From the NCBI GenBank assembly GCA_050946395.1, contig JBMNUR010000003.1, positions 1 through 37,776 of the forward strand: a stretch of DNA of 37,776 bases. Direction: 5' to 3'. Of the stretch, positions 1,821-25,793 are shown piece after piece. The notes under the pieces were generated by a model. The model saw nothing but the letters and a program-made list of their open reading frames with translations. It ran no database searches and had not been told where the DNA came from. Position 1 is the first letter of the stretch; the number at the start of each line of letters is the position of its first letter. Source of the DNA: Peptococcales bacterium (lineage in GTDB: Bacteria > Bacillota > Peptococcia > Peptococcales > BICA1-8). The position numbers were made by a program, and so were the translations under genes.

Positions 1821-1821
1821 T

Positions 1822-3093: not shown

Positions 3094-3094
3094 T

Positions 3095-8578: not shown

Positions 8579-8603
8579 AATACTTACTATGGGATAATAA
8601 GGT

Positions 8604-10717: not shown

Positions 10718-10790
10718 TTAATTTTAAATAATAACTATCTGTAATTATAAATCCTCCAATTTTTAAATGCTTAATCACTTTATTTGCTCA

Positions 10791-10805
10791 AGGTCTATAT
10801 GACCT
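10791..10805. promoter_or_regulatory. Palindromic candidate operator upstream of the DUF2157 operon
   Basis: AGGTC-TATAT-GACCT, about 45 nt before the start codon. Confidence 0.4.
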
Positions 10806-10848
10806 AGGCCCTTTTCTGATAAAATAGATACAAGAAAAAAATAAAGGG

Positions 10849-12484: not shown

Positions 12485-12492
12485 CAGAAACA

Positions 12493-12519
12493 TGCCCCCT
12501 TTCGATAATAAAGGGGGCA
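12493..12519. terminator. Hairpin between convergent genes
   Basis: TGCCCCCTTT-N7-AAAGGGGGCA. Confidence 0.7.
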
Positions 12520-12525
12520 ATTTCG

Positions 12526-13599: not shown

Positions 13600-13722
13600 A
13601 ATAACACCTCACTGTTCATGTGAAACCCTAACTGTTAACTCACTATCATTATATATTTGACCGACAGACAAAGTGACAATTGAGTTTATGGAAAAGAGAT
13701 GTAGTTGAAAAATTATGATTGT

Positions 13723-13762
13723 AAAAAAAATCCCCCTCAATAATTCTTTGAAGAGGATTTTT
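13723..13762 (-). terminator. Intrinsic terminator after the DASS transporter
   Basis: A8-TCCCCCTCAA...TTGAAGAGGATTTTT. Confidence 0.6.
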
Positions 13763-13816
13763 ATATAACTTTCACAGTAAGGTACACACTTTATTACGCT
13801 TTTATACTTAGAACTC

Positions 13817-15289
13817 TTAGAACATAACCGAACCTAATAATAGAGTAACACAAGCGATTGTTACATAAGCAACAACCACGAAAATTAATGATAACTTTGC
13901 AATTTCATTAGACTTAATCCATTCGTTTCCGTGTAATAATGCTGCGCTGGAGCTGGCAGCCGGAGTTAAAAATGCACAATGGACAAGTATAGTAACAATG
14001 ATAACTGAAATTTCCGGGGGTAAACCCATAGAAACAGATAATGCATAACATACAGGCATAAGGGCCACACCAACAGCACCGTTATTAATGAAGTTTGTTA
14101 TTACAACGGCTATAGCCCCCATTACTAGGATAAAGAAGACCGCCGATTTCCCAGCAAATATTGGGTCTAGTGTACTAATAATCATTTTAACAATCCCTGT
14201 CGACTCATTTGTCATTGCACCTGCAAGGGGCTGAACAACTGCAAGTAATAAGATAATACCCCAGGCAACACCAGTGTCTACCATTTTCTTGAAATTAAGT
14301 AGTGGTTTGCCATCTATTTTTAAAAAGCACATAATTGCTACAATTAAAACGCATACTCCTGTACTACCTATTTTATTTAAAAAGACTGTAAAAAATAATC
14401 CCTTTGGTAAAAAGGTTGGTAAAACTAAGAGAATGACTAAGAGGGCTAAAAAGAACATTATGATTTTCTGTATTTTATTTAATACTAATTCGTCTTTAAT
14501 ATTTAAAGCTTCCAAGTCAATTTTTTTAAGTTTCTCCACATCAGGTTTTAGAATATATTTGCATACAATAATGAACGCTAATGATAAAAATATACATGTA
14601 AGAACTGAAATCAACATATAATTGCCATAATTGATACCCTGCCCCGACATAGTTTCATAGGCACCTAGTACAGTTAAAGGAACTTGCTTAAAAGGTATCA
14701 TTGACATACCAATTTGGGCAGCAAACAATATTCCAAAAATCATTATAGTTGGATAATCGTCACCTTTTTTATAACCAACCACATCACAAATACCATATAA
14801 TATACTCCAGCCAATAATTGCCGCAGGTGAAGCACTGGTTAAACCACCCAAAATGAATATTGAAATAAGAAAGGCGAAAGTAAACATCCAAGGTTTACCT
14901 AATACAAATTTTCTGGAAATAAACCATAAAGAAATATATTTTGATAATCCATAATAGCTTATGGTAGCACAAAAAACAAATATAAAAAACATCATTTGAA
15001 CTACAGGGTCACCAAAGCTAGCATTAAACATAGCCTTAGCATTCATATAACCACTTAGTGGAAGGGCAAGTAAACAGATTAAACTGGGCCAAATTAAGCC
15101 AATAAATATCCATCCGTATAATGCCCCTAGGAATATTCCCAAAATTTTCATTCCCATTTCTGTTACCGTGCTAAAGGTAGGTAAATAACCAAATCCGAAG
15201 GTAATAATTAGAAAAATAAGTGTATGCAAATAATATACTGTTTCTTTCTTCGATTGAGGTTTAATGTTTTGTTGAGTTGAAATGGCCAT
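13817..15289 (-). CDS. SLC13/DASS family anion (dicarboxylate/sulfate-type) transporter
   Basis: 490 aa polytopic membrane protein, TNFINN and FLTPAAS hairpin-like motifs. Confidence 0.8.
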   Translation of the reverse strand: MAISTQQNIKPQSKKETVYYLHTLIFLIITFGFGYLPTFSTVTEMGMKILGIFLGALYGWIFIGLIWPSLICLLALPLSGYMNAKAMFNASFGDPVVQMMFFIFVFCATISYYGLSKYISLWFISRKFVLGKPWMFTFAFLISIFILGGLTSASPAAIIGWSILYGICDVVGYKKGDDYPTIMIFGILFAAQIGMSMIPFKQVPLTVLGAYETMSGQGINYGNYMLISVLTCIFLSLAFIIVCKYILKPDVEKLKKIDLEALNIKDELVLNKIQKIIMFFLALLVILLVLPTFLPKGLFFTVFLNKIGSTGVCVLIVAIMCFLKIDGKPLLNFKKMVDTGVAWGIILLLAVVQPLAGAMTNESTGIVKMIISTLDPIFAGKSAVFFILVMGAIAVVITNFINNGAVGVALMPVCYALSVSMGLPPEISVIIVTILVHCAFLTPAASSSAALLHGNEWIKSNEIAKLSLIFVVVAYVTIACVTLLLGSVMF

Positions 15290-15336
15290 AAATTAATCCT
15301 CCTTAAATATAGTTTATTATTTTGGAAACCAATCCA

Positions 15337-17067
15337 CTAATTCTTATAAAAGGTAAAATTATCTGAATAGTATTTTTCAATTTTATATTTATATTTATCT
15401 ACCGGGACGGGTTTTTGGCTGAATGAAATATTACCATCTTCATTCATTTTAGCTATAATCCAGCATAGGAATTTTTTATCATCGCGTCCTGGATAATCTA
15501 CCCTATAATGGCCTGCTCTCGATTCTTTACGTTCTAACGAAGCTTTAAGATATAATTCAGTAATAAACGCAATAGTCTTTACTTCTATTAATTTAAGTAA
15601 GTAATGAGGATCTTTAGCAGACATTCTAGGCAATAAATCTGTTTTTACTTTTTCTAAACCAGCCAGAGCCTTGGTTAATGCTTCCTCATTTTTAATTATT
15701 GCAACCTCAGGATTAAATACCAACTCTTGGATAATCCTTAGAACCTCTTTTGGAGTAAGCCCATTTCCGTTTATTAAAGCAAATAAATCCTTTTTATGTG
15801 CCTCAACTTCATTAAAATCAATTTCCGGTGTAAAACTGTCAGAGGAATTAATGTATCTAACAACTTCCTCACCGGCAAGGTAACCTCCCACAGCCGTTGT
15901 ACTAAGTGCAAAACCTCCCATATATACACCTGGGTCAATATATCGAGCATTGCCTGCTGCAAATAGCCCTTCAATTGAAGTTCTGCCATGTAAATCAGCA
16001 ACTATGCCACCAAAGCTAACTGTCAGTTGGGGATTCCACTCTGTATTATCTTTAAATAAATCTATTCCAAGATCTACAAGCTTTTTGTAGTTCATAAGCT
16101 GCCATCCGGTTTGAGGCTTAAGGAGTTGCATGTCTTCAGGATTAACACGACTAACATCCAAAATAAACGGTCCTCTTCCTGCTTTTTCTTCCAGAGCCAT
16201 AGCAATAGTCGTAAAATGCGGATCAGTATTGGCACCTAAAACCGGTGAATATTTATCCATTAAGGGCTCCCCTACACCGTTAATAAACCGTGCACCAAGG
16301 GGAAAAAGTGCAGTTTGTCCTTCAAAACCAAACAATTTTGGTACATTCCAAACTCTTCCAAATTCAAAATTACAAAGTTCTGCTCCCGCCCTGAATGCTA
16401 AGTCTGCGCCTTCACCCGCAGTTGTATTCTTACCATATGATGTTTTCCAACCTGTCAGTCCTGTGGCCAGTATTACTGCTTTGGCTTTAATTATGTAAAA
16501 ATCGCCATTAATTGTATCAAATCCGACCGCACCAATTACTTTACCCTCTTTTTTTAATAAATCGGTAATGAGTGTTCTCCCTATCCGTTTAACCCCTCTG
16601 CTGTGTACTTCTTTAACAAGGTTTTGAACCATTTCTGCACCGCCCCTGCCTTTATATTTAGCAGGATAGAGTTTTATATGATTCAAACCTCTTTGGGGTA
16701 TACCTTTTAGAGTACCGTCAGGCTTCCTTAAAAATTGGCACCCTAATCTTTCATAATCTTGAAGACGATCATAGGATTTTTTTAATAATCCTTCTACTAA
16801 TTCTTGATCACAAAGGCCATCGTAATAATAAACTAAATCTTTAACCCAATCTTCAACATTTTCATCGGGAAGAACTGCCTCAAAATCTCCCCCTGAAATA
16901 GACATCAAGCCACCCCAATCAACAGGGCCTTTATCAACGATTAATACTTCAAGGTTTTCATCCAGTTCTTTTGCTCTGTTTGCAGCCCATAAACCAGCTG
17001 AACCACCACCAATAATTAAAATATCTATATTATCCAATAGAATATCTTTATTTTTATCGGCTTTCAT
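15337..17067 (-). CDS. FAD-binding flavoprotein, SdhA/FrdA/AprA superfamily (paralog 1)
   Basis: IIGGGSAG, ILATG, GLFAAG, ERKESRAGHYRVDYP; no RSHT or FHPT motifs. Confidence 0.85.
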   Translation of the reverse strand: MKADKNKDILLDNIDILIIGGGSAGLWAANRAKELDENLEVLIVDKGPVDWGGLMSISGGDFEAVLPDENVEDWVKDLVYYYDGLCDQELVEGLLKKSYDRLQDYERLGCQFLRKPDGTLKGIPQRGLNHIKLYPAKYKGRGGAEMVQNLVKEVHSRGVKRIGRTLITDLLKKEGKVIGAVGFDTINGDFYIIKAKAVILATGLTGWKTSYGKNTTAGEGADLAFRAGAELCNFEFGRVWNVPKLFGFEGQTALFPLGARFINGVGEPLMDKYSPVLGANTDPHFTTIAMALEEKAGRGPFILDVSRVNPEDMQLLKPQTGWQLMNYKKLVDLGIDLFKDNTEWNPQLTVSFGGIVADLHGRTSIEGLFAAGNARYIDPGVYMGGFALSTTAVGGYLAGEEVVRYINSSDSFTPEIDFNEVEAHKKDLFALINGNGLTPKEVLRIIQELVFNPEVAIIKNEEALTKALAGLEKVKTDLLPRMSAKDPHYLLKLIEVKTIAFITELYLKASLERKESRAGHYRVDYPGRDDKKFLCWIIAKMNEDGNISFSQKPVPVDKYKYKIEKYYSDNFTFYKN

Positions 17068-17091
17068 TTGATCACTCCCAATACAGAATTT

Positions 17092-17301
17092 TCAGTATAC
17101 CCAAGGTAAAATTTCTTTAAAAGGATGAACATAAACAGCTCCATGTGGACACACTAATTCGCACAAATAACAGGTCATACAATCATCCGGATAAGCGATA
17201 TATGCTTTCTTTTCATCATTCATTCTGATTGCATCTAACGGACAGCGCTTCGCACAAACTCCACATCCTTGACATTTTTCCGTATCTATGTACTTAATCA
17301 T
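17092..17301 (-). CDS. 2x[4Fe-4S] ferredoxin, AprB/AsfB-like
   Basis: CQGCGVCAKRCP and CMTCYLCELVCP. Confidence 0.9.
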   Translation of the reverse strand: MIKYIDTEKCQGCGVCAKRCPLDAIRMNDEKKAYIAYPDDCMTCYLCELVCPHGAVYVHPFKEILPWVY

Positions 17302-17418
17302 TTCTTATTCCACCTCCGTTTTACTCTAACTCTTTTCAAGTTAATGTTCTCCCTTTCACATATGGAATTATAAATATATTCCTTTTTATAATTAATAACC
17401 GGCGAAAAAAGATGAGTA

Positions 17419-17445
17419 AATAATGGGCGTAAAACACCCATTATT
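17419..17445 (-). terminator. Hairpin between the two flavoprotein modules
   Basis: AATAATGGGCGT-AAA-ACACCCATTATT. Confidence 0.5.
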
Positions 17446-17489
17446 TTAATAAAAATACACTCTACTTTGAGAATAATTTAGTAATAAAA

Positions 17490-19166
17490 TTATTTCATTC
17501 TATCTCTAAATTCCAGTTTAAACCCATCCTTTGTTTTCTGTATTGTCTGGAATTTATTATTTAAAAGTGGATTAGTATATGTGAAATCAACTCTCCTGTG
17601 GTGTCCCCGTGATTCTTTACGGTTTTCGGCGGTTAAAGCCACAGCTTCAGCTAAGTCAATTAAATCCAAAACTTCTAGAGTTCTCATTAATTCATGAGAG
17701 TCCTCGCATTTAATTTCTAAAATTGAAAATTGTCTTAAATCATTAAGGTACTTAATTCCTGCTTTTAATAAAGTTTCTGACCTAACTTTTAAGCCAACGT
17801 AGTCATTCATGATCTGTTGTAAAGTAGAATTACTTTCTAACCAATGAGCTCCATTTTCTCTTTCCAGGAATAATTTATAAAAGCTAATTTTTTCATTAAT
17901 TAGAGGGTGATTGCTTACATCATAGTCATCTACTTGTTTGACATATTCACTGGAATCTTCCCCTACAACGTCACCCCATACTGATGCGTTGGTAATGTTT
18001 CCTCTGACGTTACCACAACAAATACCTGCAGCATAAAGGCCTTTTACTGATGTCATACCGTTTAAACCAATATCAATACCTTTTTGAGATAACGAATAGT
18101 CATAGGTCCCAAATTCGACCATAGTTTTGCGCAAATCAATGCCCCGTTTTTCACAATAATCCGTAATTGAGTCAATGCCTTCACTTTCAAAGGCTTTTTC
18201 TTGGTACTTTAGATCATCTTCGCTAAGTTCTGTACAGTTCATATATGTTGGACCAGTTCCATTAGCAAGTTTTTCTCCAAAAATACCTGGCCATATATCC
18301 ATCATGGCATCGCCTGTTTCTCTATTTGGCTTTGTTAAAAAGGGGCTAATGGATTTACCGGTAATGTCTGATAAAACGCCAATCCAAGTTGCTTTACCGG
18401 AACGAGCAAAACCTTTTATCCCGGCATGAATATAAGGTACATCGATATTAACGAGTTTGGCTCCAGCTCTAAAGGCAATAGCTGCTCCGCCCGCTGCTGC
18501 AGGACAACTATGCGTATTGAAAATGTAAGCAGGATTGACATGAGGATACATTCTCATGGCCTGTGCCGTAGCTACCAATACTGCTTTAGCTTGAAAAATA
18601 ATTACTTCCGGTATATCTTCACTTAAACTAAAACCAATAGCACCGACAGCTCGACCTTCCTCATTTACTAAAACTTCATTAATAAATACCTTATTCATAA
18701 TTTTTGCACCATTTTTTTGGGCCTGCTGTGTCAATACTTTCTTTTGGTTATGTCCATCATATTTTAAATGATAGCGTTGACGGCCTGGCATGGCATGACC
18801 TTCAAATTTCCAATCACCGGTTGGCCTCATATTAATGCCATAAGATTCCCATTTTTGAACAATACTATAGGATCTTCTCATCATTTTCCGTAACATAGCT
18901 GGATCCTGCCAGGGTCCGCCTTCCATCGTTTCATTAATCTCACTGATTACTAAACTAAAATCATCACCGTGGCATTCAGGAATATAACACATGAAGTGGT
19001 CGTTTCCGTTGGCACCACTTCCGGAACGTCGAGTATCTGCTTTTTCAGCTACGATGACGTCCACACCTTTTTCGCCTGCAGTAATTGCTGCCTGTAATCC
19101 AGCAATACCACCACCGATAATTAGTAATTCAGTTTTTACTATTTCCTTCCTTACTTTTAAATCCAT
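17490..19166 (-). CDS. FAD-binding flavoprotein, AprA/AsfA-like (paralog 2)
   Basis: IIGGGIAG, EKADTRRSGSGANG (compare AprA EKAxxxRSGA), GLYAAG, NRKESRGHHRRVDF. Confidence 0.85.
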   Translation of the reverse strand: MDLKVRKEIVKTELLIIGGGIAGLQAAITAGEKGVDVIVAEKADTRRSGSGANGNDHFMCYIPECHGDDFSLVISEINETMEGGPWQDPAMLRKMMRRSYSIVQKWESYGINMRPTGDWKFEGHAMPGRQRYHLKYDGHNQKKVLTQQAQKNGAKIMNKVFINEVLVNEEGRAVGAIGFSLSEDIPEVIIFQAKAVLVATAQAMRMYPHVNPAYIFNTHSCPAAAGGAAIAFRAGAKLVNIDVPYIHAGIKGFARSGKATWIGVLSDITGKSISPFLTKPNRETGDAMMDIWPGIFGEKLANGTGPTYMNCTELSEDDLKYQEKAFESEGIDSITDYCEKRGIDLRKTMVEFGTYDYSLSQKGIDIGLNGMTSVKGLYAAGICCGNVRGNITNASVWGDVVGEDSSEYVKQVDDYDVSNHPLINEKISFYKLFLERENGAHWLESNSTLQQIMNDYVGLKVRSETLLKAGIKYLNDLRQFSILEIKCEDSHELMRTLEVLDLIDLAEAVALTAENRKESRGHHRRVDFTYTNPLLNNKFQTIQKTKDGFKLEFRDRMK

Positions 19167-19414
19167 TATTGCTCACCCCCTTTAGTAGCTTTTACATCCA
19201 TAGTTAACATCATATGTGATAACGGATACCTCATAGTGATGGCATCGGCAGGACATTCTTTGATACAAGCTCTGCAATGCCAACATTCATATGGATACTT
19301 AACGACAACTTCCCTTTTTTGCTCCTTCTTATCAACACGAATAACATCAAGAGGACAAATTTGTGCACATACCTCACACTTAATACATTTAGTTCTGTCT
19401 ATTACCGGTGGCAC
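19166..19414 (-). CDS. 2x[4Fe-4S] ferredoxin, AprB-like
   Basis: CIKCEVCAQICP and YPYECWHCRACIKECP. Probable GTG start at 19414 after AGGAGAGGTGA; stop overlaps the flavoprotein start. Confidence 0.9.
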   Translation of the reverse strand: MPPVIDRTKCIKCEVCAQICPLDVIRVDKKEQKREVVVKYPYECWHCRACIKECPADAITMRYPLSHMMLTMDVKATKGGEQ

Positions 19415-19655
19415 GATCCTCACCTCTCCTCCCGTTCTATTTAATAAAAGTTAATGGCCATAACTTTTTTCACCTTCAGTATATATTTCATTTATACTTA
19501 GGTAAAATAACATTTATAGATATGATTATTACCATTAATTATAGTTGTGTAATGGGTTCTCCTTATAAGTAATATAATTAATTCTAATCTGAATTTACGC
19601 AATTGAAGTATGCTACTTATTATTCTAAATTCAAATAAAGAAATTAAAATGCTGT

Positions 19656-21215
19656 TTAACTCAAAATATTTTTCAGTTCCCCCCATTTTTCTTTAAAAAT
19701 CCCAGTTGGCATAGTTTTTAACTGCTTGGAAATTTTCGGCTTGAAATTCATAAGCCCCAGTACATCTTTTTCCAAGTCAATACCCGGAGCAATTTCAATA
19801 AGAGTCATTCCACCATCTTCTAAAGTAAATACTGCTCTTTCGGTAACATATACTACCGGTTGTTTAATTTGTTGAGCATATTTTCCACTAAAAGTAATTT
19901 GCTCTACTTGGTCCAGAAATTTTCTTTGCTTACCTTCATTTAAAATAACTAACTTACCGTCTTCTACCATAGTAGCCAATCCTTCGGCGGTAAAGGTACC
20001 ACAATAGACAACTTTTTTTGATCCTTGAGTAATATTTATAAAACCACCGCAGCCCATGGCCCTGCCACTGAACTTACTGACGTTGACATTACCATTTTTA
20101 TCTGTTTGGGCCAGCCCCAAGAAAGCAACATCAATTCCGCCGCCATCATAAAAATCAAACTGTGAGTGATGCTCAATCATTGCCTCGGCATTATAAGCAT
20201 GACCAAAATGGGGCAGACTGGCGGGGACACCGCCTATTCCCCCGGCTTCAGTTGTCAAAATCAACTTCTCACTGATTTTTTCCTCAGCAGCTATCGCAGC
20301 AACATCAGTAGGAATACCTACTCCAAGATTGACTACAGCACCTGGGACTAATTCCATTGCAGCGCGCCGGGCAATTATTTTTCTTTCGTTTAACGGAAGT
20401 TCCGGGATAGTCTCTAAAGGTATCTTGACATCGCCGGCAAAAGCCGGGTTGAAATACACTCCCTCTGTTTGCCAGTGATTGACCGGATCAGTTGCAACCA
20501 CAAGATAATCAATAAGAATGCCCGGAACTTTAACCTTCTTAGGGTGCAAAGTATTGGCTTTTACTATTTGTTCTACTTGCGCAATAACAATACCACCGCT
20601 ACTTTTAGCAGCTTGGGCCAAAGGCAATGCTTCCGTCAGCATCCCTTCTTTATCCATAGTTAGGTTTCCGTTTTCATCGGCGTAGGTTCCCCTGATAATG
20701 ACTACATCTACAGGGAGAGTTTTATAAAATAACCATTCCTCCCCCTCAAAATCTACTACCTTAACAATATCCTCTGTGGTAACTGAGTTCATTTTGCCGC
20801 CCTCTAGGCGAGGATCAACATATGTGCCAAGGCCTACTTTGGTAATAAGACCCGGCCTTTTGGCAGCAGTTTCCCGCCACAACTGAACAATAACCCCTTG
20901 TGGTAAATTGTAAGCCTCTACTTTATTTTCCGTGACCAGTTTTGCCATATTGGCTGAAGAACCTACATGCCCACCTATCCAGCGTTTAATCAATCCCTCA
21001 TACCCAATGGTTGTTGTTCCCCGGTCTTTCCAATCACCAATGGCTGAACTGTGAACCAAAGTGAGATTCTTGGGACTACCCTTTTCTAGAAATCGCTTTT
21101 TTAGGGCCTTAGCAATTTCCTCAGGCCATCCGGCAAGTCCTATGGCACTTGCCCCAATCGTTACACCGTCTTTTATTAACATAACAGCCTGTTCGGCAGT
21201 TAAGACCTTAGACAT
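19656..21215 (-). CDS. Family I acyl-CoA:carboxylate CoA transferase (Pct/YdiF/CarA-like, fused)
   Basis: YNLPQG, VNLGVGIP, catalytic TTEAGGIGG, GNVNVS, GCGGFINI. Confidence 0.92.
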   Translation of the reverse strand: MSKVLTAEQAVMLIKDGVTIGASAIGLAGWPEEIAKALKKRFLEKGSPKNLTLVHSSAIGDWKDRGTTTIGYEGLIKRWIGGHVGSSANMAKLVTENKVEAYNLPQGVIVQLWRETAAKRPGLITKVGLGTYVDPRLEGGKMNSVTTEDIVKVVDFEGEEWLFYKTLPVDVVIIRGTYADENGNLTMDKEGMLTEALPLAQAAKSSGGIVIAQVEQIVKANTLHPKKVKVPGILIDYLVVATDPVNHWQTEGVYFNPAFAGDVKIPLETIPELPLNERKIIARRAAMELVPGAVVNLGVGIPTDVAAIAAEEKISEKLILTTEAGGIGGVPASLPHFGHAYNAEAMIEHHSQFDFYDGGGIDVAFLGLAQTDKNGNVNVSKFSGRAMGCGGFINITQGSKKVVYCGTFTAEGLATMVEDGKLVILNEGKQRKFLDQVEQITFSGKYAQQIKQPVVYVTERAVFTLEDGGMTLIEIAPGIDLEKDVLGLMNFKPKISKQLKTMPTGIFKEKWGELKNILS

Positions 21216-21241
21216 TTAATCACTCCCTTGTTTTCGATAGA

Positions 21242-22441
21242 TTATTCAATATTTTTTATTTCCTTAAACTTCTCAATCATCAAAGGCAGTATTTCTAAAG
21301 CATCACCAACAATACCATAGTCGGCTATGCTAAAGATGGGTGCATTAGCATCTTTATTTACAGCAATAATCACATCTGAAGACGACATGCCGGCCACATG
21401 CTGAATAGCACCGGAGATTCCAAATGCAAAGTAAATCTTAGGGGCAACACTTTTCCCTGTTTGTCCAATCTGATGTTCCGGCGATATCCAGCCCGCATCC
21501 ACTGTTGCCCGAGAAGCACCGACAACACCACCTAAAACATCGGCCAATTCCCTAAGTAAGGCGAAGTTTTCAGGTTTACCTATCCCTCTGCCCCCGGAAA
21601 TTATTATTTCGGCATCTTCTAGTTTAATATTTTCCTTAGTTATCTTAATAACCTCAACAAGCTTGGTCCGAATATCCTTCGGCTTTACTTCCAAGTCAAG
21701 TCTAATAATTTTGCCTTTTTTTGTTGCATCAGGAGTCGGCTTTTTAAATACTGCAGGCCTAACTGTACCCATTTGGGGTCTATGTTCCGGACAAAGGATA
21801 GTAGCCATTATATTACCGCCAAAGGCAGGACGGGTCCAGGCCACCAGCCCCGTTTCATCATCAATTCCTAAATCGGTGCAGTCAGCAGTCAGCCCTGTTT
21901 TTACACGACAAGCTACCCTGGGCCCGAGATCTCGGCCGTTTCTGGTAGCACCAAGAAGTATTACTGAAGGCTTATATGTATTTATTAAATTTACTAAAGA
22001 ATTACAATAACCATCTGTATTGTAGTATTTGAGCAGAGGATCTTCGACCAAATATATAGAATCAGCTCCATGAGCAATAGCTTCTTGAGCAAGTCCAAAG
22101 ACGTTATCGCCGATAATTATACCAATCAATTGTTGCCCTAAAGCATTGGCTAGTTTACGGCCCTGACCTAATAATTCCAATCCAACGTTTTCTAATTTTC
22201 CTTCATTTACTTCTAAGTAAACCCAGATATCTTTGAATTGACTTTTATCAACATCTGTCGTAGAGCATTCATCCTCACGAAAAATAGCTTTAACAGCACA
22301 TACATCAACACAAGCACCGCATGAGGTACAAGAATCCGTAATAACCGCTTTACCAGCCTCCATAGTGATTGCCCCAAAAGGACAAGTATTAATGCAGACA
22401 CCACATCCTATACATTTATCTTCAAATATTTTTATTGCCAT
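21242..22441 (-). CDS. etfA: Electron transfer flavoprotein alpha with N-terminal 2x[4Fe-4S] domain (CarE-like)
   Basis: CIGCGVCINTCP and CTSCGACVDVC, then GLTADCT, RPAFGGN, QIGQTGK, GISGAIQH. Confidence 0.93.
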   Translation of the reverse strand: MAIKIFEDKCIGCGVCINTCPFGAITMEAGKAVITDSCTSCGACVDVCAVKAIFREDECSTTDVDKSQFKDIWVYLEVNEGKLENVGLELLGQGRKLANALGQQLIGIIIGDNVFGLAQEAIAHGADSIYLVEDPLLKYYNTDGYCNSLVNLINTYKPSVILLGATRNGRDLGPRVACRVKTGLTADCTDLGIDDETGLVAWTRPAFGGNIMATILCPEHRPQMGTVRPAVFKKPTPDATKKGKIIRLDLEVKPKDIRTKLVEVIKITKENIKLEDAEIIISGGRGIGKPENFALLRELADVLGGVVGASRATVDAGWISPEHQIGQTGKSVAPKIYFAFGISGAIQHVAGMSSSDVIIAVNKDANAPIFSIADYGIVGDALEILPLMIEKFKEIKNIE

Positions 22442-22456
22442 TAAACTACCCCTCCG

Positions 22457-23242
22457 TTAAATAATTTTGTCTTCCGATAGCATTTGAAAAAGCTCAGCTA
22501 CACCTTCTTGGCTGGTAGGCTTTTGAATCTTTAAACACTGCTTGCGCTGCGGTGGTGAAAAAATTCTTCGTACTTGAGTTGGTGAGCCTTTCAAACCTAT
22601 TTTTTCCTGATCAATACCAATATCTTTTAACCCTAAGACTTTAATTTCTTTTCGCAAAGATTGAATTATGCCCCTACAATTGGGTAAACGTGGTTCATTG
22701 ATAGACTTTACAACTGTAATCAATAGTGGTAATTGGGCTTCAAGCACTTCATAGAAGTGATCTTGTTCCCTGTGAAACCGCAGAATATTCCCATCTCTAT
22801 TGATATTTGCCACATAAGTAATCTGAGCAATACCCAGATGCTCCGCAATTTCCGGTCCGACCTGGGCAGTGTCTCCATCGATAGCTTGCATACCGCAGAT
22901 AATAAGATCATAGCTACCAAGTTTACGAATACTTTGAGCCAAAGTATAGCTAGTAGCCAGAGTATCAGCACCGCCAAAAGCTCGATCACTAACTAAAAAG
23001 GCTTCATCAGCTCCTATGGCCAAGCATTCTTGAAGAGCCTCCTTAGCTTGAGGCGGGCCCATTGTGATTACAGTTACGGTACCACCATATTTATCCCTCA
23101 ATTGGAGTGCAGCTTCCAAGGCATTTTTATCAAAAGGGTTAATAATACTTGGTACGCCTTGACGTATGAGAGTATTTGTTTTTGGGTCGATTTTTACCTC
23201 GGCTGTATCGGGTACTTGTTTAACACAAACAATAATCTTCAT
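22457..23242 (-). CDS. etfB: Electron transfer flavoprotein beta
   Basis: VCVKQVPD, NPFD, DRAFGGADTLAT, QAIDGDTAQVG. Start MKIIV at 23242 after AGGAGG. Confidence 0.93.
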   Translation of the reverse strand: MKIIVCVKQVPDTAEVKIDPKTNTLIRQGVPSIINPFDKNALEAALQLRDKYGGTVTVITMGPPQAKEALQECLAIGADEAFLVSDRAFGGADTLATSYTLAQSIRKLGSYDLIICGMQAIDGDTAQVGPEIAEHLGIAQITYVANINRDGNILRFHREQDHFYEVLEAQLPLLITVVKSINEPRLPNCRGIIQSLRKEIKVLGLKDIGIDQEKIGLKGSPTQVRRIFSPPQRKQCLKIQKPTSQEGVAELFQMLSEDKII

Positions 23243-23286
23243 GTATTTACCTCCTAGCATTGTTAATAGTAATCAACTCAATCCTT

Positions 23287-24417
23287 TTAACGTAAAAGTT
23301 GGTTAGAGATGACAATCCTTTGTATTTGATTAGTTCCTTCAAAAATCTGATGAACCTTGGCATCACGCATTAATTTTTCAACAGGATATTCACGACTGTA
23401 ACCATACCCCCCTAAAATCTGCACAGCATCGGTAGTTACACTCATTGCAACATCCGTACAATAAAGCTTAGCCATAGCTGCTTCCCTAGTAAAGCGCTTA
23501 CCTTTTTGTTTTAAATATGCTGCTTGATAACACAATAGCCTTGCTGCTTCAATTTTGGTTGCCATATCGGCCAGCATAAAAGAAATACCTTGATAACTTG
23601 CAATGGGCTTTCCAAACTGAACCCGTTCCTTTGCATATTTAACAGAATGCTCAAGGGCAGCTTGAGCAATACCTAAGGCTTGAGCAGCACAGCCAATACG
23701 TCCGACATCTAAGGTTTCCATGCAAATTTTAAAACCCTCTCCTTCTCTTGCCAATAAATTTTCCTTAGGAACCCTCACATCTTGTAAGATTAACTCTGTA
23801 GTTACAGCAGACCTTAAGCCCATCTTCTTTTCTTTTTTGCCTAAGCTAAACCTAGGTGTACCCTTCTCAACTATGAAACAGCTAATGCCCTTAGTTCCTT
23901 TACTTTGATCCGTTACTGCCATAACCAAATAAATATCAGCATCATTACTGATAAAACACTTCGTCCCATTTAGCACATAATGATCTCCATCAAGGATAGC
24001 CTTACTTTGTAAAGCGGCTGGGTCACTGCCCGCACCGGGTTCAGTAAGAGCAAAACCACAAATTGCCGTGCCCTCAAGCACCGGTCTGAGATATTTTTGT
24101 TTTTGTTCTTCAGTACCATGCAGAAAAATAGGCAATCCACCTAAACCACCGCCGCCAATAGGAATACACATGGTAACATCAACCCTAGCTATTTCTTCAA
24201 TAGCAAGAATATAGCTTAAATAGTCACCACCTGAGCCGCCGTATTCTTCAGGATAGGGTATCCCCTGAAAGCCAAACTTAGCAATTGTATCAAATAATGA
24301 ACGGTCAAATCTTTCTTCCTCATCTCTTTCTACAACGCTAGGAGCAATGTATTTCTCAGAAACCTCCCGAGCCAGTTTCTTAATCATTTTGTTTTCTTCT
24401 GTCAATTCGAAATGCAT
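23287..24417 (-). CDS. Acyl-CoA dehydrogenase (Bcd/CarC-like)
   Basis: FALTEPGAGSD, GTKCFIS, KMGLR, QILGGYG, catalytic IFEGTNQIQR. Confidence 0.93.
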   Translation of the reverse strand: MHFELTEENKMIKKLAREVSEKYIAPSVVERDEEERFDRSLFDTIAKFGFQGIPYPEEYGGSGGDYLSYILAIEEIARVDVTMCIPIGGGGLGGLPIFLHGTEEQKQKYLRPVLEGTAICGFALTEPGAGSDPAALQSKAILDGDHYVLNGTKCFISNDADIYLVMAVTDQSKGTKGISCFIVEKGTPRFSLGKKEKKMGLRSAVTTELILQDVRVPKENLLAREGEGFKICMETLDVGRIGCAAQALGIAQAALEHSVKYAKERVQFGKPIASYQGISFMLADMATKIEAARLLCYQAAYLKQKGKRFTREAAMAKLYCTDVAMSVTTDAVQILGGYGYSREYPVEKLMRDAKVHQIFEGTNQIQRIVISNQLLR

Positions 24418-24547
24418 GAATTATCCCCTTTCTTTCATTTTATTAAGGCATTCTTATGAGCCTTTGCAAGCTGTACGGTTAAAACCTCTGATTTTATCAT
24501 AGATTAACTTTATTATTTATGTAAAATATCAATTATTGTATTCTATT

Positions 24548-24562
24548 ATAAGCATTAGTCAT
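24548..24562. promoter_or_regulatory. Candidate LysR box upstream of the acyl-CoA dehydrogenase operon
   Basis: ATAA-GCATTAG-TCAT contains T-N11-A; adjacent to the LysR gene. AT-rich context lowers specificity. Confidence 0.35.
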
Positions 24563-24617
24563 ACTTATATAATTATAGCTATAAGCAAACTTCCTTTTTA
24601 ATCTTAAAAAACGTTAG

Positions 24618-24656
24618 AAAAAAAAGATAATGAGTAGCAATCTACCCATTATCTTT
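24618..24656 (-). terminator. Intrinsic terminator of the LysR gene
   Basis: A-tract + AAGATAATGAGTAG...CTACCCATTATCTT. Confidence 0.7.
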
Positions 24657-24691
24657 ATTGATAATTCATTAACATATATTTTTAGAATTAT

Positions 24692-25615
24692 CTAATTACT
24701 CTCTTTATAACGATTACAATATAGCAATAACTCATCTACTATTCTTTGTTCGGATATTGAAAGTTTTTGCTTTTTATGTACCCAACCAAATCGGGAATTC
24801 CAGTTATAATCGGATATTAAGACCACTTCGAGCTTGTCACTAAACGTTTTATTACTTTCAAAGGCCGTGAACTTTGGAACTATCGCTATAGCATTTGATC
24901 GGGTTAGAAAATTTCTTAAGGTCCCTATATCATTAATGTTATAAATTTGCTGATGATAGTCGCAATATCCAAATTGTTTTAGAAAATTTAGCATGAGAAA
25001 ATTAATTGAACTATTACTTGTAACTACAGGATAACGAATAATTTCATTCATTGGAGCTTGGCTTTTAGCTGCTAAAGGATGATTATAGCCTAAGATTATA
25101 CACATTTCATCATCAAACAATTCCTGAAAATAAGCATTATTTCTTCTAATTTCTGTCATTAGGCTGCTTTCAGTTGCAGAATTTAAGGTAATCATCCCAA
25201 TATCTACTTCATTTAAGGCAATATTTTTAATAATACTAAAAATCTCATCCCGCATAATATCTACAATTAGTTCCGGGAATTTGTTTCGTAAATCAACCAG
25301 GCTTTCGAATATAATGACGCTACAATGGTGAGAGCCGCTCCCAATTCTAACTCTTCCTATTAACTTTTCATCTATAATATTAATTTCATTTATTGCCTCC
25401 ATGATAATTACCGCTTTTTCTAAAACCAATTTGCCTTTTTCAGTAAATTCGATTCCCTTTTTTTCTCGTATTAAAATATCGTATCCCAGTTCTTCTTCTA
25501 ACTCTTTGATCGCTCTACTGATAGCAGGTTGTGAAATTAGTATTTTTTCCGCAGCCTTTGAAAAAGAACCATATGAATTCAAAGCTACTAAAAATTCAAA
25601 TTGATTTAAACGCAT
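24692..25615 (-). CDS. LysR family transcriptional regulator
   Basis: GSFSKAAEKILISQPAISRAIKELEEELG HTH. Start MRLNQ after GGAGG. Confidence 0.93.
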   Translation of the reverse strand: MRLNQFEFLVALNSYGSFSKAAEKILISQPAISRAIKELEEELGYDILIREKKGIEFTEKGKLVLEKAVIIMEAINEINIIDEKLIGRVRIGSGSHHCSVIIFESLVDLRNKFPELIVDIMRDEIFSIIKNIALNEVDIGMITLNSATESSLMTEIRRNNAYFQELFDDEMCIILGYNHPLAAKSQAPMNEIIRYPVVTSNSSINFLMLNFLKQFGYCDYHQQIYNINDIGTLRNFLTRSNAIAIVPKFTAFESNKTFSDKLEVVLISDYNWNSRFGWVHKKQKLSISEQRIVDELLLYCNRYKESN

Positions 25616-25793
25616 AGAATACCCTCCATACACAAATACAATATTTTATCAAATAAATAACTCAATTTCTTCTCTATAGCAAGTTTGTGCATAAAATGAT
25701 ATTGCTGTTATAATTCTTCTACATTTTGTTCAAATTTCCCTTCATTAATATAAACAATTTTTCTGTGTGCTTCAGTGCTCCCACACCCTATTA

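Follow-up and report, generated by a model that had tools for sequence, protein, structure and literature searches.

Closest described systems

Several described systems come to mind when one looks at the genes treated here. In fixABCX and in E. coli ydiQRST, genes for an Etf, a ferredoxin and a flavoprotein are found together. The layout of asfRABC resembles a different combination, that of LysR regulator, ferredoxin, flavoprotein and transporter. In the excerpted text of PMC5861303, FixCX-FixBA is listed among the Etf-based bifurcating complexes; in that of PMC9694294, AsfA belongs to a multicomponent monooxygenase system that works aerobically. A first-pass annotation of the stretch of DNA analysed here (37,776 nucleotides from a Peptococcales genome, henceforth the window) had likened one gene block to CarCDE, to APS reductase and to AsfAB at the same time, and it knew of no described pathway of such composition. 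Our literature searches found none either.

Layout of the block

The block comprises ten co-directional genes between 13817 and 25633 (Table 1). ORF calls, Pfam and NCBIfam place all of them where they had been annotated, apart from a detail: the longest lysR ORF starts with GTG at 25633, and the start given before, 25615, lies six codons inside. The ORFs of fd1 and flav1 share base 19166. Pfam matches nothing in a 62-aa ORF at 19498-19686; the stretch in which it lies is not conserved in the orthologous block, so this ORF is probably not a gene. As annotated, no Sdh anchor, Sat or Qmo was detected among the scanned window ORFs of at least 100 aa. Two of these ORFs, at 8604-10457 and at 26359-27225 (288 aa), were without a match in Pfam. 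The flanks of the block encode an IS30-like transposase and a Wadjet system.

Table 1. Genes, hairpins and motif copies of the block, in window coordinates
Feature	Position	Strand	Basis
LysR-family regulator, 313 aa	24692..25633	-	HTH_1 63.8 bits, LysR_substrate 47.9 bits
Acyl-CoA dehydrogenase/reductase (acd), Bcd-like, 376 aa	23287..24417	-	Pfam ACAD N, M and C domains
EtfB, bifurcating type, 267 aa	22457..23260	-	best solved match CarD
EtfA with N-terminal 2x[4Fe-4S] ferredoxin domain, 399 aa	21242..22441	-	Fer4 + ETF + ETF_alpha
Family I CoA transferase (coaT), fused alpha/beta, YdiF type, 519 aa	19656..21215	-	PF01144, two stretches
Fd1, 2x[4Fe-4S] ferredoxin, 85 aa	19166..19423	-	Fer4 in two stretches; two Cys motifs
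Flav1, SdhA/AprA-superfamily flavoprotein, 558 aa	17490..19166	-	FAD_binding_2 + Succ_DH_flav_C
Fd2, 2x[4Fe-4S] ferredoxin, 69 aa	17092..17301	-	Fer4 in two stretches
Flav2, second SdhA/AprA-superfamily flavoprotein, 576 aa	15337..17067	-	FAD_binding_2 + Succ_DH_flav_C
DASS/CitMHS-type anion permease, 490 aa	13817..15289	-	CitMHS 66.7 bits
Intrinsic terminator closing the block	13726..13762	-	-18.3 kcal/mol, z -4.25, then U8
Hairpin + U8 directly 3' of lysR	24623..24656	-	-17.7 kcal/mol, z -6.5
Hairpin after flav1	17418..17446	-	-15.6 kcal/mol, z -7.0; weaker U tail
16-nt motif ATAATTGATATTTTAC	24521..24536	-	119 nt upstream of acd ATG; overlaps -35-like TTTACA
16-nt motif ATAAATGTTATTTTAC	19502..19517	-	94 nt upstream of fd1 start; overlaps -35-like TTTACC

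The CoA module

The parallel to the CarCDE proteins of caffeate respiration, drawn at first pass, holds for the Etf and is weaker for the dehydrogenase. The latter finds its best solved matches in Bcd 4l1f (466 bits) and 5ol2_C (458 bits), whereas CarC reaches 391 bits; butyryl-CoA dehydrogenases are thus closer than CarC. Its 489 bits against the AcrC model of NCBIfam stay under the cut-off of 640. The C-terminal FEGT, the Glu of which would be catalytic, is present. EtfB matches CarD (6fah_B) with 277 bits, other bifurcating Etfs with 231-249 bits and non-bifurcating ETFs with 86-98 bits. EtfA aligns with CarE (6fah_A) over residues 1-395, ferredoxin domain included (474 bits); LctC of the confurcating Ldh-EtfAB (7qh2_A) scores 283 bits and human ETF 157 bits. 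Eight Cys form two CxxCxxCxxxC motifs within residues 10-47. For either subunit the scores with bifurcating Etfs are thus two to three times those with non-bifurcating ones, and CarD/CarE are the closest solved relatives.

The CoA transferase matches E. coli YdiF (2ahu) with 472 bits; with the FadX model it scores 492 bits, under the NCBIfam cut-off of 750. A 60% identical homologue in another family (locus L112, genome G020) lies beside a DASS permease, a 3-hydroxyacyl-CoA dehydrogenase and a PrpD-family protein, neighbours that point to a carboxylate as its substrate.

The ferredoxin-flavoprotein pairs and the permease

The pairing of a small ferredoxin with an SdhA-superfamily flavoprotein, read at first pass as the architecture of AprBA and AsfAB, is indeed there. 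Among solved structures, both flavoproteins come closest to the AprA-like PAPS reductase 8a8o_A (alpha subunit; E 1.3e-35 for Flav1). The likeness to AprA itself is poor: with 72.9 and 85.7 bits, Flav1 and Flav2 stay far from the NCBIfam cut-off of 641.75, and in the alignment Asn74 of AprA, a residue with a functional role, corresponds to Met in Flav1 and Glu in Flav2. Both also remain far under the Sdh/Frd family cut-offs and lack key residues of AprA and of Sdh/Frd. Four canonical Sdh/Frd substrate residues are replaced by W, F, T and Y in Flav2, so that all are lost; Flav1 keeps one of the four, as judged by a pairwise alignment only. With the dicarboxylate-holding His/Arg lost in both, a fumarate-like substrate is not indicated.

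The two flavoproteins are 24% identical. Flav1 is below the cut-off of every NCBIfam model and, judging by its sequence, belongs to an uncharacterised family, of which D56, H57, C60, H66, H124 and K258 are invariant in 74 sequences. In neither flavoprotein is there room for a signal peptide ahead of the N-terminal GxGxxG. Fd1 is presumed to be the electron-entry subunit of Flav1. The permease scores 88.7 bits with the DASS model TIGR00785, under the cut-off of 198.6; its match with VcINDY is full-length yet weak (35 bits).

Distribution

Just one other genome, G040, which belongs to another genus, has the whole block. The similarity of the DNA (73-80% of nucleotides) extends from 13817 to 25635 and ends exactly at the block edges; the flanks are unrelated. 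Two genera thus share the block whole and in the same gene order. The spacer 19546-19656 is not conserved. The LysR proteins of the two blocks are 72% identical, and the window's LysR is 30-44% identical to those of other cassettes; none of the NCBIfam equivalogs reaches its cut-off with LysR.

Elsewhere the conserved unit is LysR, a transporter and a ferredoxin-flavoprotein pair, often with a second pair. We compared 80 related loci, 79 of them with a Flav1-type gene; many of their contigs are short, and neighbour counts are therefore lower bounds. Of the 79, at least 76 have a ferredoxin gene no more than 500 bp from the Flav1 homologue, at least 41 a LysR gene within 5 kb of it, at least 34 a DASS homologue within 3 kb and at least 16 a Flav2-type gene within 5 kb. 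Gut Peptococcaceae have up to 12 or more cassettes per genome, without the CoA module. Other cassettes use a second DASS subfamily, MFS, NMT1-type ABC (L002, L009, L063), TAXI-TRAP or sugar-type ABC transporters instead. Inducible enzymes specific for different substrates would be expected to show such a pattern. Some homologues reside in sugar-type loci (L031, L039). The gut genomes also carry cassettes of like layout with LysR, DASS and an OYE-type, enoate-reductase-like protein. The ferredoxin-flavoprotein cassette is common and multi-copy in gut relatives and has no characterised member.

The CoA module is distributed differently. Of the 88 genomes of the class, 25 have homologues of the CoA transferase, but none of the 38 genomes of family f3 does; 20 of the 88 have the Flav1 family, and 18 of these 20 belong to f3. 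The distributions are almost disjoint, which implies that most cassettes work without a dedicated Bcd-Etf. That the modules belong together, as the first-pass annotation had it, finds support in the intact unit of G040 and in a common motif (see below). The counts come close to refuting it: the modules co-occur in one of the 80 related loci and in two of the 88 class genomes, the window's own (G000) and G040. The order in locus L001 is LysR-Fd-Flav-DASS; in the present block the CoA module stands between the regulator and its ancestral targets.

Transcription and a shared motif

The terminator annotated at the end of the block is real. None of 200 shuffles folds as well, and the consensus scan does not list it. 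The hairpin behind lysR, probably also an intrinsic terminator, is equally unmatched by 200 shuffles and is listed by the scan; its 5' arm, ATAATGGGT, is conserved at the identical place in the G040 alignment. The hairpin after flav1 has the same arm, is conserved in G040 and is predicted to be a weak terminator or a processing site. A relaxed hairpin pattern, scanned over 130 loci (1.74 Mb), matched at 10 places; matches with the GGGT arm were confined to the two junctions of L020/L130, and the pattern was absent from every other ferredoxin-flavoprotein cassette locus (L001-L080). A 232-bp spacer and these two strong internal hairpins split the block, which is probably transcribed as three or four units, not as one.

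Two of the presumptive units share a 16-nt motif. In the genome of 3.36 Mb, ATAAWTGWTATTTTAC has only two exact copies, one upstream of acd, the other upstream of fd1, where the consensus scan shows promoter-like sites (24525-24496 and 19506-19478, respectively). The former copy is identical in G040, the latter conserved. The spacers lysR|acd and coaT|fd1 align with a score of 42, which was reached by one of 500 shuffles (mean 24.4, sd 3.6). Motifs of this class are found 56-89 nt upstream of ferredoxin genes in 9 of 101 cases versus 4 of 3000 random windows, and upstream of none of 100 Flav1, 95 Flav2, 41 DASS and 50 LysR genes. The common motif predicts co-regulation of the CoA and the ferredoxin-flavoprotein modules. 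Overlapping a -35-like hexamer, however, it may be a mere promoter type rather than an operator, and most of the 101 ferredoxin genes lack it.

The host genome

The host has DsrA (547 bits; cut-off 392.85), and in its genome (94.6% complete) Sat was not found and no AprA above cut-off, which is the profile of a sulfite reducer. Of the 20 Flav1-family carriers in the class, 18 have DsrA, but so do 34 of the 38 f3 genomes, cassette or not; NIR_SIR proteins are seen in 9 of 10 other carriers and in 11 of 14 control genomes. Being frequent in non-carriers as well, these proteins do not discriminate for or against a sulfonate as substrate. A canonical membrane FrdCAB is encoded with a fumarase elsewhere, on contig C52.

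What the block may do

Our tentative proposal, to which we give a little less than an even chance, is a substrate-inducible cytoplasmic system that imports and reductively converts an organic di-anion, most likely a carboxylate. LysR would sense the compound and the DASS-type permease import it. The free acid would then be acted on by two different flavoenzymes, Fd1-Flav1 and Fd2-Flav2, each with non-covalent FAD and with a 2x[4Fe-4S] ferredoxin subunit of its own to deliver low-potential electrons. Behind the regulator, this lineage would have gained an inserted second module, a YdiF-type CoA transferase with a CarCDE-like electron-bifurcating acyl-CoA reductase (Bcd-like protein, EtfB and ferredoxin-fused EtfA). 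This module would turn the product, or a co-substrate, into a CoA ester and reduce an enoyl-CoA with NADH; the ferredoxin reduced by Bcd-Etf could feed both flavoenzymes. The order of these steps, the ferredoxin loop, the substrate class and, by thermodynamic reasoning, the reductive direction are what we infer. The low-potential ferredoxins as electron-entry partners argue for reductases, as do the missing room for a signal peptide, the FrdCAB encoded elsewhere and the OYE-type cassettes of like layout. Against the proposal stand the nearly disjoint distributions of the modules, the free-standing CoA set of L129 (see below), the internal hairpins and spacer, the lost His/Arg residues and the homologues in sugar-type loci.

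The modules might also be two unrelated systems side by side: an ordinary short-chain acyl-CoA module, its YdiF-type transferase and bifurcating Bcd-Etf serving as in butyrate or propionate metabolism, would have landed in a LysR/ferredoxin-flavoprotein/DASS cassette, and the pathways would be separate. The rarity of their co-occurrence suggests so, as do the butyryl-CoA dehydrogenases among the top matches, the internal hairpins, the unconserved spacer and the mobile surroundings. Moreover, the set ACAD-EtfB-EtfA-CoAT is free-standing and unchanged in order at L129, with comparable sets at L118 and L127. Yet the block is intact in two genera amidst unrelated flanks, its CoA module separates the regulator from the ancestral targets and bears the cassette-type motif, of which the genome has no third exact copy. 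We consider this separation unlikely, though it has to be taken seriously. Very unlikely is an oxidative pathway for a saturated dicarboxylate, with the flavoproteins and the acyl-CoA dehydrogenase removing hydrogen from the acid and its CoA ester and the Etf confurcating as in lactate dehydrogenase-Etf. In principle, SdhA-family and ACAD enzymes can run either way, a ferredoxin-fused EtfA is also found in Ldh-EtfAB, and in L111 a related CoA transferase adjoins an Etf and a GlcD-like oxidase. But C-C dehydrogenation yields electrons near 0 mV, and by established thermodynamics it is highly unfavourable to pass them on to a 2x[4Fe-4S] ferredoxin; nor does Pfam reveal a hydratase, 3-hydroxyacyl-CoA dehydrogenase or thiolase in the block to continue beta-oxidation.

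The first-pass annotation had named a sulfonated carboxylate as a possible substrate, which our data neither support nor exclude, since the context found does not discriminate. According to this idea, the AprA-like flavoenzymes would free sulfite, possibly by cleaving the C-S bond reductively via a sulfite adduct at flavin N5; this sulfite would then be respired with DsrAB. The PAPS reductase likeness, the sulfite-reducer profile with DsrA in most carriers and the asfRABC-like layout fit; NMT1-type importers, present in some cassettes, also carry sulfonates, and the named relatives of Flav2 include Mailhella, Desulfovibrionaceae and Moorella sulfitireducens. The Met or Glu at the Asn74 position and the wide failure of the AprA models do not fit, DsrA and NIR_SIR are frequent without the cassette, and OYE enoate-reductase-like, PrpD-like and Amidohydro_2 neighbours suggest carboxylate chemistry. 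As AsfA has an oxygenase system for a partner, and this in aerobes, according to the excerpt of PMC9694294, it is no model for anaerobic desulfonation, and a search of titles and opening lines of abstracts yielded no flavin-dependent reductive desulfonation. We regard the sulfonate as distinctly improbable. Finally, the pairs could resemble FixCX/EtfCX and link the Etf to another acceptor without converting a substrate. The gene order Etf, ferredoxin, flavoprotein is like that of fixABCX and ydiQRST, and FixCX-FixBA counts as an Etf-based bifurcating complex (excerpt of PMC5861303). This possibility is close to refuted: the domains of Flav1 and Flav2 are not the FixC-type fold, no Etf is within reach in 79 of the 80 related loci, and every cassette comes with a transporter and a regulator of its own.

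Gene content and layout of the block

All parts of the block, a run of ten minus-strand genes, belong to known superfamilies, and the logic of regulator, importer, reductase and bifurcating Etf is familiar. What stands out is an unstudied, widespread and multi-copy family of ferredoxin-linked flavoenzymes, together with its lineage-specific coupling to a CarCDE-like complex. The block combines two ferredoxin-flavoprotein (Fd-Flav) pairs, Fd1/Flav1 and Fd2/Flav2, with a LysR regulator and a permease, an ensemble here called a cassette, and with a CoA module consisting of acd (acyl-CoA dehydrogenase), etfB, etfA and coaT (CoA transferase). The first-pass annotation had described this gene content and the closing terminator correctly, as judged from Pfam and NCBIfam identities and from a strong hairpin followed by a U-run at the 3' end; Sat and Qmo, which it had reported as absent, are indeed not among the window genes. 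The curated cut-off of NCBIfam equivalogs is reached by none of the block proteins.

Features of the block and of its surroundings in the window
Feature	Coordinates	Strand	Assignment or remark
Ten-gene block	13817-25633	minus	ORFs, Pfam and NCBIfam
LysR, acyl-CoA dehydrogenase, EtfB, EtfA, CoA transferase, Fd1, Flav1, Fd2, Flav2, permease	block, in this order	minus	Pfam and NCBIfam
EtfA	block	minus	N-terminal two-cluster ferredoxin domain
CoA transferase	block	minus	family I, fused
Fd1 and Flav1	common base 19166	minus	2x[4Fe-4S] ferredoxin; 558-aa FAD_binding_2 + Succ_DH_flav_C protein
Fd2 and Flav2	block	minus	ferredoxin; 576-aa flavoprotein with the same domain make-up as Flav1
Permease	block	minus	CitMHS/DASS-type
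JetD_C	1822-3150	minus	Wadjet
SMC-like ATPase, 1113 aa	3095-6436	minus	Wadjet
DUF4194/JetB	6396-7034	minus	Wadjet
JetA	7000-8433	minus	Wadjet
Radical SAM-SPASM protein, 357 aa	12526-13599	minus	directly downstream of the block terminator; outside the region common to G040
IS30-like transposase (HTH_38 + rve)	27862-28917		upstream of the block
HNH endonuclease	29255-30142		upstream of the block

The block is probably a cluster of several transcription units and not a single operon, since it contains two more strong hairpins, one after lysR and one after flav1, and spacers of 274 bp (lysR/acd), 232 bp (coaT/fd1) and 188 bp (flav1/fd2). A 62-aa ORF at 19498-19686 was rejected as a gene. An Rfam scan of 13000-26500 with E up to 1 yielded 0 matches and, in consequence, no clue to a riboswitch.

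The permease scores 88.7 against the DASS model TIGR00785 (cut-off 198.6) and 66.7 against Pfam CitMHS (cut-off 31.9). Its residues 44-487 align weakly, with 35 bits, to VcINDY. It probably belongs to the wider ion-transporter superfamily.

The flanks of the block are made up of a Wadjet system, the radical SAM-SPASM gene, a DUF218 gene and the IS30-like transposase. The Wadjet defence system (1822-8433, minus strand) is complete. Together with the transposase and the HNH endonuclease it marks a variable region.

The CoA/Etf module

EtfA aligns over residues 1-395 with CarE of the caffeyl-CoA reductase of Acetobacterium woodii (6fah_A) at 474 bits. Four other bifurcating or confurcating Etfs score 283-372 bits, the mitochondrial and Paracoccus ETFs 153-157 bits. 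EtfB finds its best match in CarD (277 bits); the bifurcating group ranges from 231 to 277 bits against 86-98 bits for non-bifurcating ETFs. By score, both subunits side with the bifurcating group. The N-terminus of EtfA contains eight Cys in two CxxCxxCxxxC motifs at residues 10-47 and is matched by Fer4 in two stretches. The CarE-type N-terminal ferredoxin domain, a feature described in the available part of PMC5861303, is thus present, and the alignment with 6fah_A begins at residue 1.

The dehydrogenase is nearest to the butyryl-CoA dehydrogenases of bifurcating complexes (4l1f, 466 bits; 5ol2_C, 458 bits), scores 391 bits against CarC and retains the C-terminal FEGT. The CoA transferase is of the YdiF type (2ahu, 472 bits, residues 4-507). 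PF01144 matches it in two stretches, both CoA_trans halves lying in one chain, and at the place of the family's catalytic Glu it carries TTEAGG, which we take to be the catalytic-Glu site of family I enzymes. It stays below the FadX equivalog cut-off (492 versus 750), and the equivalogs of the clostridial acryloyl-CoA reductase AcrABC are not reached either (AcrC 489.4 of 640, AcrB 257.1 of 475, AcrA 400.8 of 600). From the matches of Etf, dehydrogenase and transferase, the CoA module is best described as a putative bifurcating enoyl-CoA reductase, similar to Bcd and Car, that is combined with a CoA transferase of the short-chain type.

The parallel to the Car proteins of Acetobacterium caffeate respiration, drawn at first sight of the sequence, therefore holds for the Etf, which resembles CarE over its full length, ferredoxin domain included, and CarD; it is weaker for the dehydrogenase, which is nearer to Bcd than to CarC, and the transferase is of the YdiF type. 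The CoA transferase gene adjoins the reductase genes, as it presumably does in the car operon. We know of no car operon with AprA-like flavoproteins or a DASS permease.

YdiF being the best solved match of the transferase, the ydiF-ydiO-ydiQRST and cai/fix clusters of E. coli also invite comparison. The ydi cluster, as we understand it, comprises a CoA transferase, an acyl-CoA dehydrogenase, EtfBA, a flavoprotein and a ferredoxin-like protein. There, however, the Etf is served by a flavoprotein and a ferredoxin of the FixC/FixX type, whereas those of the block are of the SdhA/AprA type and are mostly found without Etf. A FixCX-like role of the Fd-Flav pairs was rejected on these grounds.

The flavoproteins and their ferredoxins

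Flav1 and Flav2 are 24% identical. Their best solved match is the same, the AprA-like PAPS reductase 8a8o_A (E 1.3e-35 for Flav1, 2.5e-34 for Flav2), followed by SdhA, AprA, FrdA and NadB. A small ferredoxin next to a flavoprotein of the SdhA superfamily, the architecture recognised in the first-pass annotation, is present in both pairs. It is shared with AprAB and the PAPS reductase of Methanothermococcus thermolithotrophicus (8a8o, 1jnr), where the gene of a small 2x[4Fe-4S] ferredoxin likewise adjoins that of a fumarate-reductase-superfamily flavoprotein. With FrdA/SdhA, L-aspartate oxidase and TfrA the flavoproteins have in common two Pfam domains and a C-terminal R-x-E-S-R-G-x-H-x-R-x-D motif. 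Nevertheless, Flav1 and Flav2 were rejected both as true APS reductases and as fumarate reductases, because curated scores, key residues and partner proteins all disagree.

As to APS reductase, the AprA model TIGR02061 gives 72.9 bits for Flav1 and 85.7 for Flav2 (cut-off 641.75), and NF005331 gives 167.2 and 149.1 (cut-off 557). Asn74 of AprA (A. fulgidus numbering) is an active-site residue beside the flavin and is expected to hold sulfite; in pairwise sequence alignments it falls on Met59 in Flav1 (1jnr_A) and on a Glu in Flav2 (8a8o_A). Fd1 and Fd2 score 43.2 and 42.7 against the aprB model TIGR02060 (cut-off 135.65). With 85 and 69 aa, they retain the two-cluster ferredoxin core, lack the long C-terminal extension of AprB and are shorter than the solved beta subunits (150 and 166 aa in AprB, 104 aa in PAPS reductase). 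Unlike AprAB, moreover, each Fd-Flav cassette has its own transporter and regulator, and the Sat model TIGR00339 has 0 matches in the window's genome, which is 94.6% complete.

The comparison with the Sdh/Frd family ends similarly. Its best model, NF006131, yields 223.2 bits for Flav1 and 229.8 for Flav2 (cut-off 587), TIGR01812 140.9 and 182.9 (cut-off 567.3). Sdh and Frd use a His-Arg-His-Arg set for substrate binding and catalysis and a further His for covalent attachment of FAD. In Flav2 the four places of the former (6lum_A) are taken by W, F, T and Y. Flav1 retains the first His (H247, which is not invariant in its family), has Asp356 instead of the second, and no Arg is aligned. The covalent-FAD His is absent, its position being Gly in Flav1 (RSGSG). 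The partners are exclusively two-cluster ferredoxins of 69-85 aa; a three-cluster SdhB/FrdB and a membrane anchor do not stand beside the genes. A canonical set of cytochrome b, FrdA and FrdB, together with fumarase, is found elsewhere in the same genome, on contig C52 (identities read from sequence features).

What is conserved instead is distinctive. Across 74 Flav1-type sequences (41-100% identical), D56, H57, C60, H66, H124, K258, R205 and R233 are invariant, as is a C-terminal R-x-E-x-R...R-x-D motif, and 15 Flav2-type sequences have an invariant set of their own. Flav1 and Flav2 accordingly look like two conserved enzyme families with their own active sites.

A further relative in design is the AsfRAB(C) system of arylsulfonate desulfurization, which in Pseudomonas putida S-313 and for rhizosphere asfA presumably likewise consists of a LysR-type regulator, a flavoprotein, a ferredoxin and an uptake component. 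Plasmid-encoded homologues in Proteobacteria (Variovorax, Cupriavidus and Burkholderia among them) share 24-28% identity with Flav1 and so stand no nearer to it than Flav2 does with its 24%; a Cupriavidus plasmid combines GntR, flavoprotein, ferredoxin and ABC transporter. According to the available text of PMC9694294, ssu and asf are parts of a multicomponent monooxygenase complex in aerobes. AsfA belongs to an aerobic, oxygenase-based system; the host of the block carries DsrA and appears to be an anaerobe.

Among 8000 scored candidates each, 2757 proteins are related to Flav1 at E <= 0.001 and 644 to Flav2 at E <= 1e-30. The named relatives among the matches listed bear generic names only, as do the automatic names for Flav1 in the ESM Atlas, and none of the best matches of either protein is a characterised one. 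In the literature searched, no paper described the gene combination of the block or a characterised protein from one of the two flavoprotein families, in line with the earlier impression that no described pathway has this combination.

The cassette in other genomes

A pattern scan with one genome per species found 95 Flav1 relatives, of which 80 loci were kept and searched by tblastn with the ten window proteins. Short contigs are common, so the counts are lower bounds; they were taken from tblastn because antisense ORFs had displaced some Flav and Fd genes in clustering (clusters 5 and 7 were dropped). A Flav1-type gene was recovered in 79 of the 80 loci. In at least 76 of these 79 a ferredoxin gene lies within 500 bp of it, in at least 34 a DASS homologue within 3 kb, in at least 41 a LysR gene within 5 kb, and in at least 24 both DASS homologue and LysR are present. 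A Flav2-type gene occurs within 5 kb in at least 16.

Cassettes without the DASS permease make use of other importers: a second DASS subfamily or MFS, NMT1-type ABC systems in MAGs of Megasphaera, Lachnospiraceae and Desulfobacteraceae, TAXI-TRAP with an Amidohydro_2 protein in several Deltaproteobacteria, and a sugar-type ABC system with a histidine kinase/AraC pair in two Lachnospiraceae MAGs. Since alternative importers stand beside Fd-Flav and a regulator, the recurrent unit is regulator, importer and Fd-Flav, which is the signature of substrate-specific inducible enzymes.

Two of these variants deserve a closer description. At five loci of Deltaproteobacteria and relatives (L063, L064, L074, L077, L078), Flav1 homologues of 41-46% identity are accompanied by the Amidohydro_2 protein and a TAXI-type TRAP with an NMT1_3 binding protein and a fused DctM, a combination that hints at decarboxylase or lactonase chemistry on ring carboxylates. 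In the two Lachnospiraceae MAGs (L031 and L039, about 800-11700), Flav1 homologues of 59% and 58% identity stand with a ferredoxin at the end of a sugar-type locus comprising a large protein with a weak GH2_N match, the histidine kinase with its AraC response regulator, and a CUT1-type ABC binding protein with two permeases. The substrates of the Flav1 family may, for this reason, not all be simple acids.

Within the window's class, 20 of 88 species genomes contain the Flav1 family, and 18 of the 20 belong to one family, f3; the loci from MAGs of gut Peptococcaceae match members of this family. Six f3 genomes (G064-G066, G072, G078, G081) show 6 to 12 Flav1-family matches each (E <= 1e-100, among 16 scored candidates per genome) and hold an arsenal of Fd-Flav cassettes; the window's own genome has a single Flav1. 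Gut genomes with cassettes also carry cassettes of the same design with LysR, DASS and an OYE-type reductase. Similar arsenals have been surveyed in gut Eggerthellaceae, Erysipelotrichaceae and Burkholderiaceae: many paralogous extracytosolic flavin or molybdopterin reductases, each beside a regulator, which suggested one enzyme per electron acceptor (10.1101/2022.12.26.521950, as far as its available text goes). The likeness lies in the many paralogous flavoproteins per genome, here up to 12 Flav1-family matches among 16 scored in gut Peptococcaceae. The difference is that the survey counted reductases with signal peptides, whereas the Fd-Flav family has no room for one, works with a ferredoxin subunit and depends on an importer. 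The string 'Peptococc' is absent from the available text of the survey. In Desulfitobacterium, the accessible part of PMC9888536 lists 30 'SQOR-family' flavoproteins, none with an assigned function beyond a putative fumarate reductase.

The block as a unit

The joining of cassette and CoA module is rare. A homologue of the acyl-CoA dehydrogenase, Etf or CoA transferase was found in one of the 80 loci only, L020 from a Peptococcaceae MAG. CoA transferase homologues occur in 25 of the 88 class genomes, none of them in f3, and meet the Flav1 family only in the window's genome and in G040, a genome of another genus of the same family. That the modules belong together, as the first-pass annotation had supposed, is supported by G040, which carries all ten genes in the same order with 72-87% protein identity, but hardly beyond it, the modules being otherwise disjoint in the class. 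The gene order of L020 is that of the G040 contig. DNA similarity to G040 (73-80%) spans 13817-25635 and ends there, while the flanks share nothing; hence the block was kept or moved whole.

The closest cassette devoid of the CoA module, L001 (Flav1 83% identical), has the order LysR-Fd-Flav-DASS; by comparison, acd-etfBA-coaT of the window sits between the regulator and its ancestral targets. The lysR/acd and coaT/fd1 spacers share about 65 nt (local score 42 versus a shuffle mean of 24.4, sd 3.6; reached by 1 of 500 shuffles). The core of this stretch, ATAAWTGWTATTTTAC, overlaps the -35-like hexamers of predicted promoter-like sites, is kept at both places in G040 and has exactly two exact copies in the 3.36-Mb genome, namely these two. 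With up to 2 mismatches it precedes the Fd genes of related loci by 56-89 nt in 9 of 101 cases, is present in 4 of 3000 random 200-nt windows, and is not found upstream of Flav1 (0/100), Flav2 (0/95), DASS (0/41) or LysR genes (0/50). The upstream region of fd2 does not resemble that of fd1 (score 21, shuffle mean 21.7). The CoA module thus seems to be equipped with a copy of the promoter/operator that belongs to the cassette, from which co-induction of module and cassette is predicted. The motif, present in a minority of cassettes, may however represent just a type of promoter.

A second repeated element concerns the hairpins. Paralogous ones at 17418-17446 and 24623-24656, with counterparts at about 7255 and 14569 in L130, the locus of the G040 block, have an invariant 5' arm, ATAATGGGT, and 3' arms that partly stay paired through G-U. 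Both genomes have them at the lysR/acd and flav1/fd2 junctions, and other cassettes lack them. The two regions resemble each other to a modest degree (score 31 versus a shuffle mean of 22.6, reached by 15 of 500 shuffles). As a mere 9-mer ATAATGGGT is unremarkable, with 60 copies in the genome versus about 41 expected and 2 in the window, a number reached in 21 of 100 shuffles; what is specific is the hairpin that it forms at the two junctions. Duplication of a terminator may have given rise to these hairpins, or they may represent a common control element at the RNA level. A third hairpin-like site, on contig C218, lies among IS transposase genes and was discarded as unrelated.

Possible function and substrate

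Flav1 and Flav2 would take up low-potential electrons and reduce, or reductively cleave, the imported anion. This reading as reductases is based on the small ferredoxin subunits, the cytoplasmic location and the importer; the frequent pairing of Flav1 with Flav2 suggests two steps on one compound. The Bcd/Car-like complex would reduce an enoyl-CoA with NADH and thereby make reduced ferredoxin. It could both complete the conversion at the CoA-ester stage and feed the flavoenzymes, possibly via the ferredoxin domain of EtfA.

Carboxylate chemistry is favoured by the family of the permease, by the LysR + DASS + OYE-type reductase cassettes and by the surroundings of the CoA transferase in G020, a genome of another family, where a homologue (60%) has a DASS permease, a 3-hydroxyacyl-CoA dehydrogenase and a PrpD-family protein as neighbours. 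The loss of the dicarboxylate-binding residues of Sdh/Frd argues against fumarate itself.

The first idea about the substrate was a sulfonated carboxylate. On this reading the flavoenzymes would cleave its C-S bond and DsrAB would take over the sulfite. The presence of DsrA above the cut-off in the window's genome, where AprA above the cut-off and Sat were not found, fits a sulfite reducer, and several relatives of Flav2, among the matches listed, come from sulfidogens. DsrA, however, is nearly universal in the order, cassette or not, and is found in 34 of 38 f3 genomes; in the class it occurs in 18 of 20 carriers of the Flav1 family versus 27 of 68 non-carriers. Outside the class NIR_SIR is present in 9 of 10 carriers, yet also in 11 of 14 control genomes. 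The distribution of DsrA and NIR_SIR therefore speaks neither for nor against a sulfonate. The residue by which AprA is expected to hold sulfite is not kept in either flavoprotein, and AsfA is part of the oxygenase system of aerobes (PMC9694294, available text). We regard a sulfonate as an unlikely alternative.

A wider proposal concerns Fd-Flav as a whole. The pairs would make up a large family, so far unrecognised, of ferredoxin-driven reductases in the cytoplasm, every one of them provided with an importer and a regulator, and sulfite-reducing gut Peptococcaceae would have a dozen or more per genome. In the block it would be wired to the CarCDE-like complex, whose ferredoxin domain would pass low-potential electrons directly to the Fd subunits; in its boldest form the proposal includes reductive C-S cleavage of a sulfonate that feeds DsrAB. 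We regard this as an unlikely, if attractive, scenario. If the direct wiring were true, the block would be a self-contained machine, in which NADH alone drives reductions that NADH could not achieve by itself.

Relevance

The relatives of Flav1 and Flav2 that can be detected in public data number from hundreds into the thousands, and both families are plentiful in gut Firmicutes with DsrAB. These Firmicutes, according to the available text of 10.1101/2025.10.20.683523, have been overlooked as a producer of hydrogen sulfide and appear to use sulfite, not sulfate. Once the substrates of the flavoenzymes are found, it would become clear which compounds these bacteria respire or detoxify, both in the gut and in bioreactors. 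The block offers the best handle on them: it provides a regulator, an importer, two enzymes that probably work one after the other, and a linked CoA module that narrows the chemistry. Should its bifurcating Etf feed the flavoenzymes, this would be a new use of electron bifurcation.

Further related loci

A second, different link of a YdiF-type transferase to SdhA-like flavoproteins is seen in L124, a locus of G036 from the same family as the window's genome. Two CoA transferase paralogues (45% and 55% identical) each adjoin an SdhA-like flavoprotein (568 and 573 aa), a ferredoxin gene being absent. The cluster further contains TRAP DctPQM, MaoC, two acyl-CoA dehydrogenases, a hexapeptide protein, an enoyl-CoA hydratase, EtfBA and an ornithine cyclodeaminase-family protein.

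In L070, from a Rhodospirillales MAG, a ferredoxin and a Flav1 homologue (43% identical) at 9559-14381 precede the genes of an SCP2-domain protein and of two peptidase U32 proteins, a layout that resembles UbiT/UbiU/UbiV, which we take to act in oxygen-independent ubiquinone synthesis.

The window's own genome contains another AprA-like flavoprotein of 562 aa, with a GMDALN motif, on contig C76 (10,949 bp). As read from the sequence, the next protein (545 aa) has Cys motifs and a motif for dinucleotide binding; behind it come TRAP DctQ/DctM/DctP-like genes, a 484-aa PrpD-like protein and a kinase/response-regulator pair. A second AprA-like gene is interrupted by the end of the contig.
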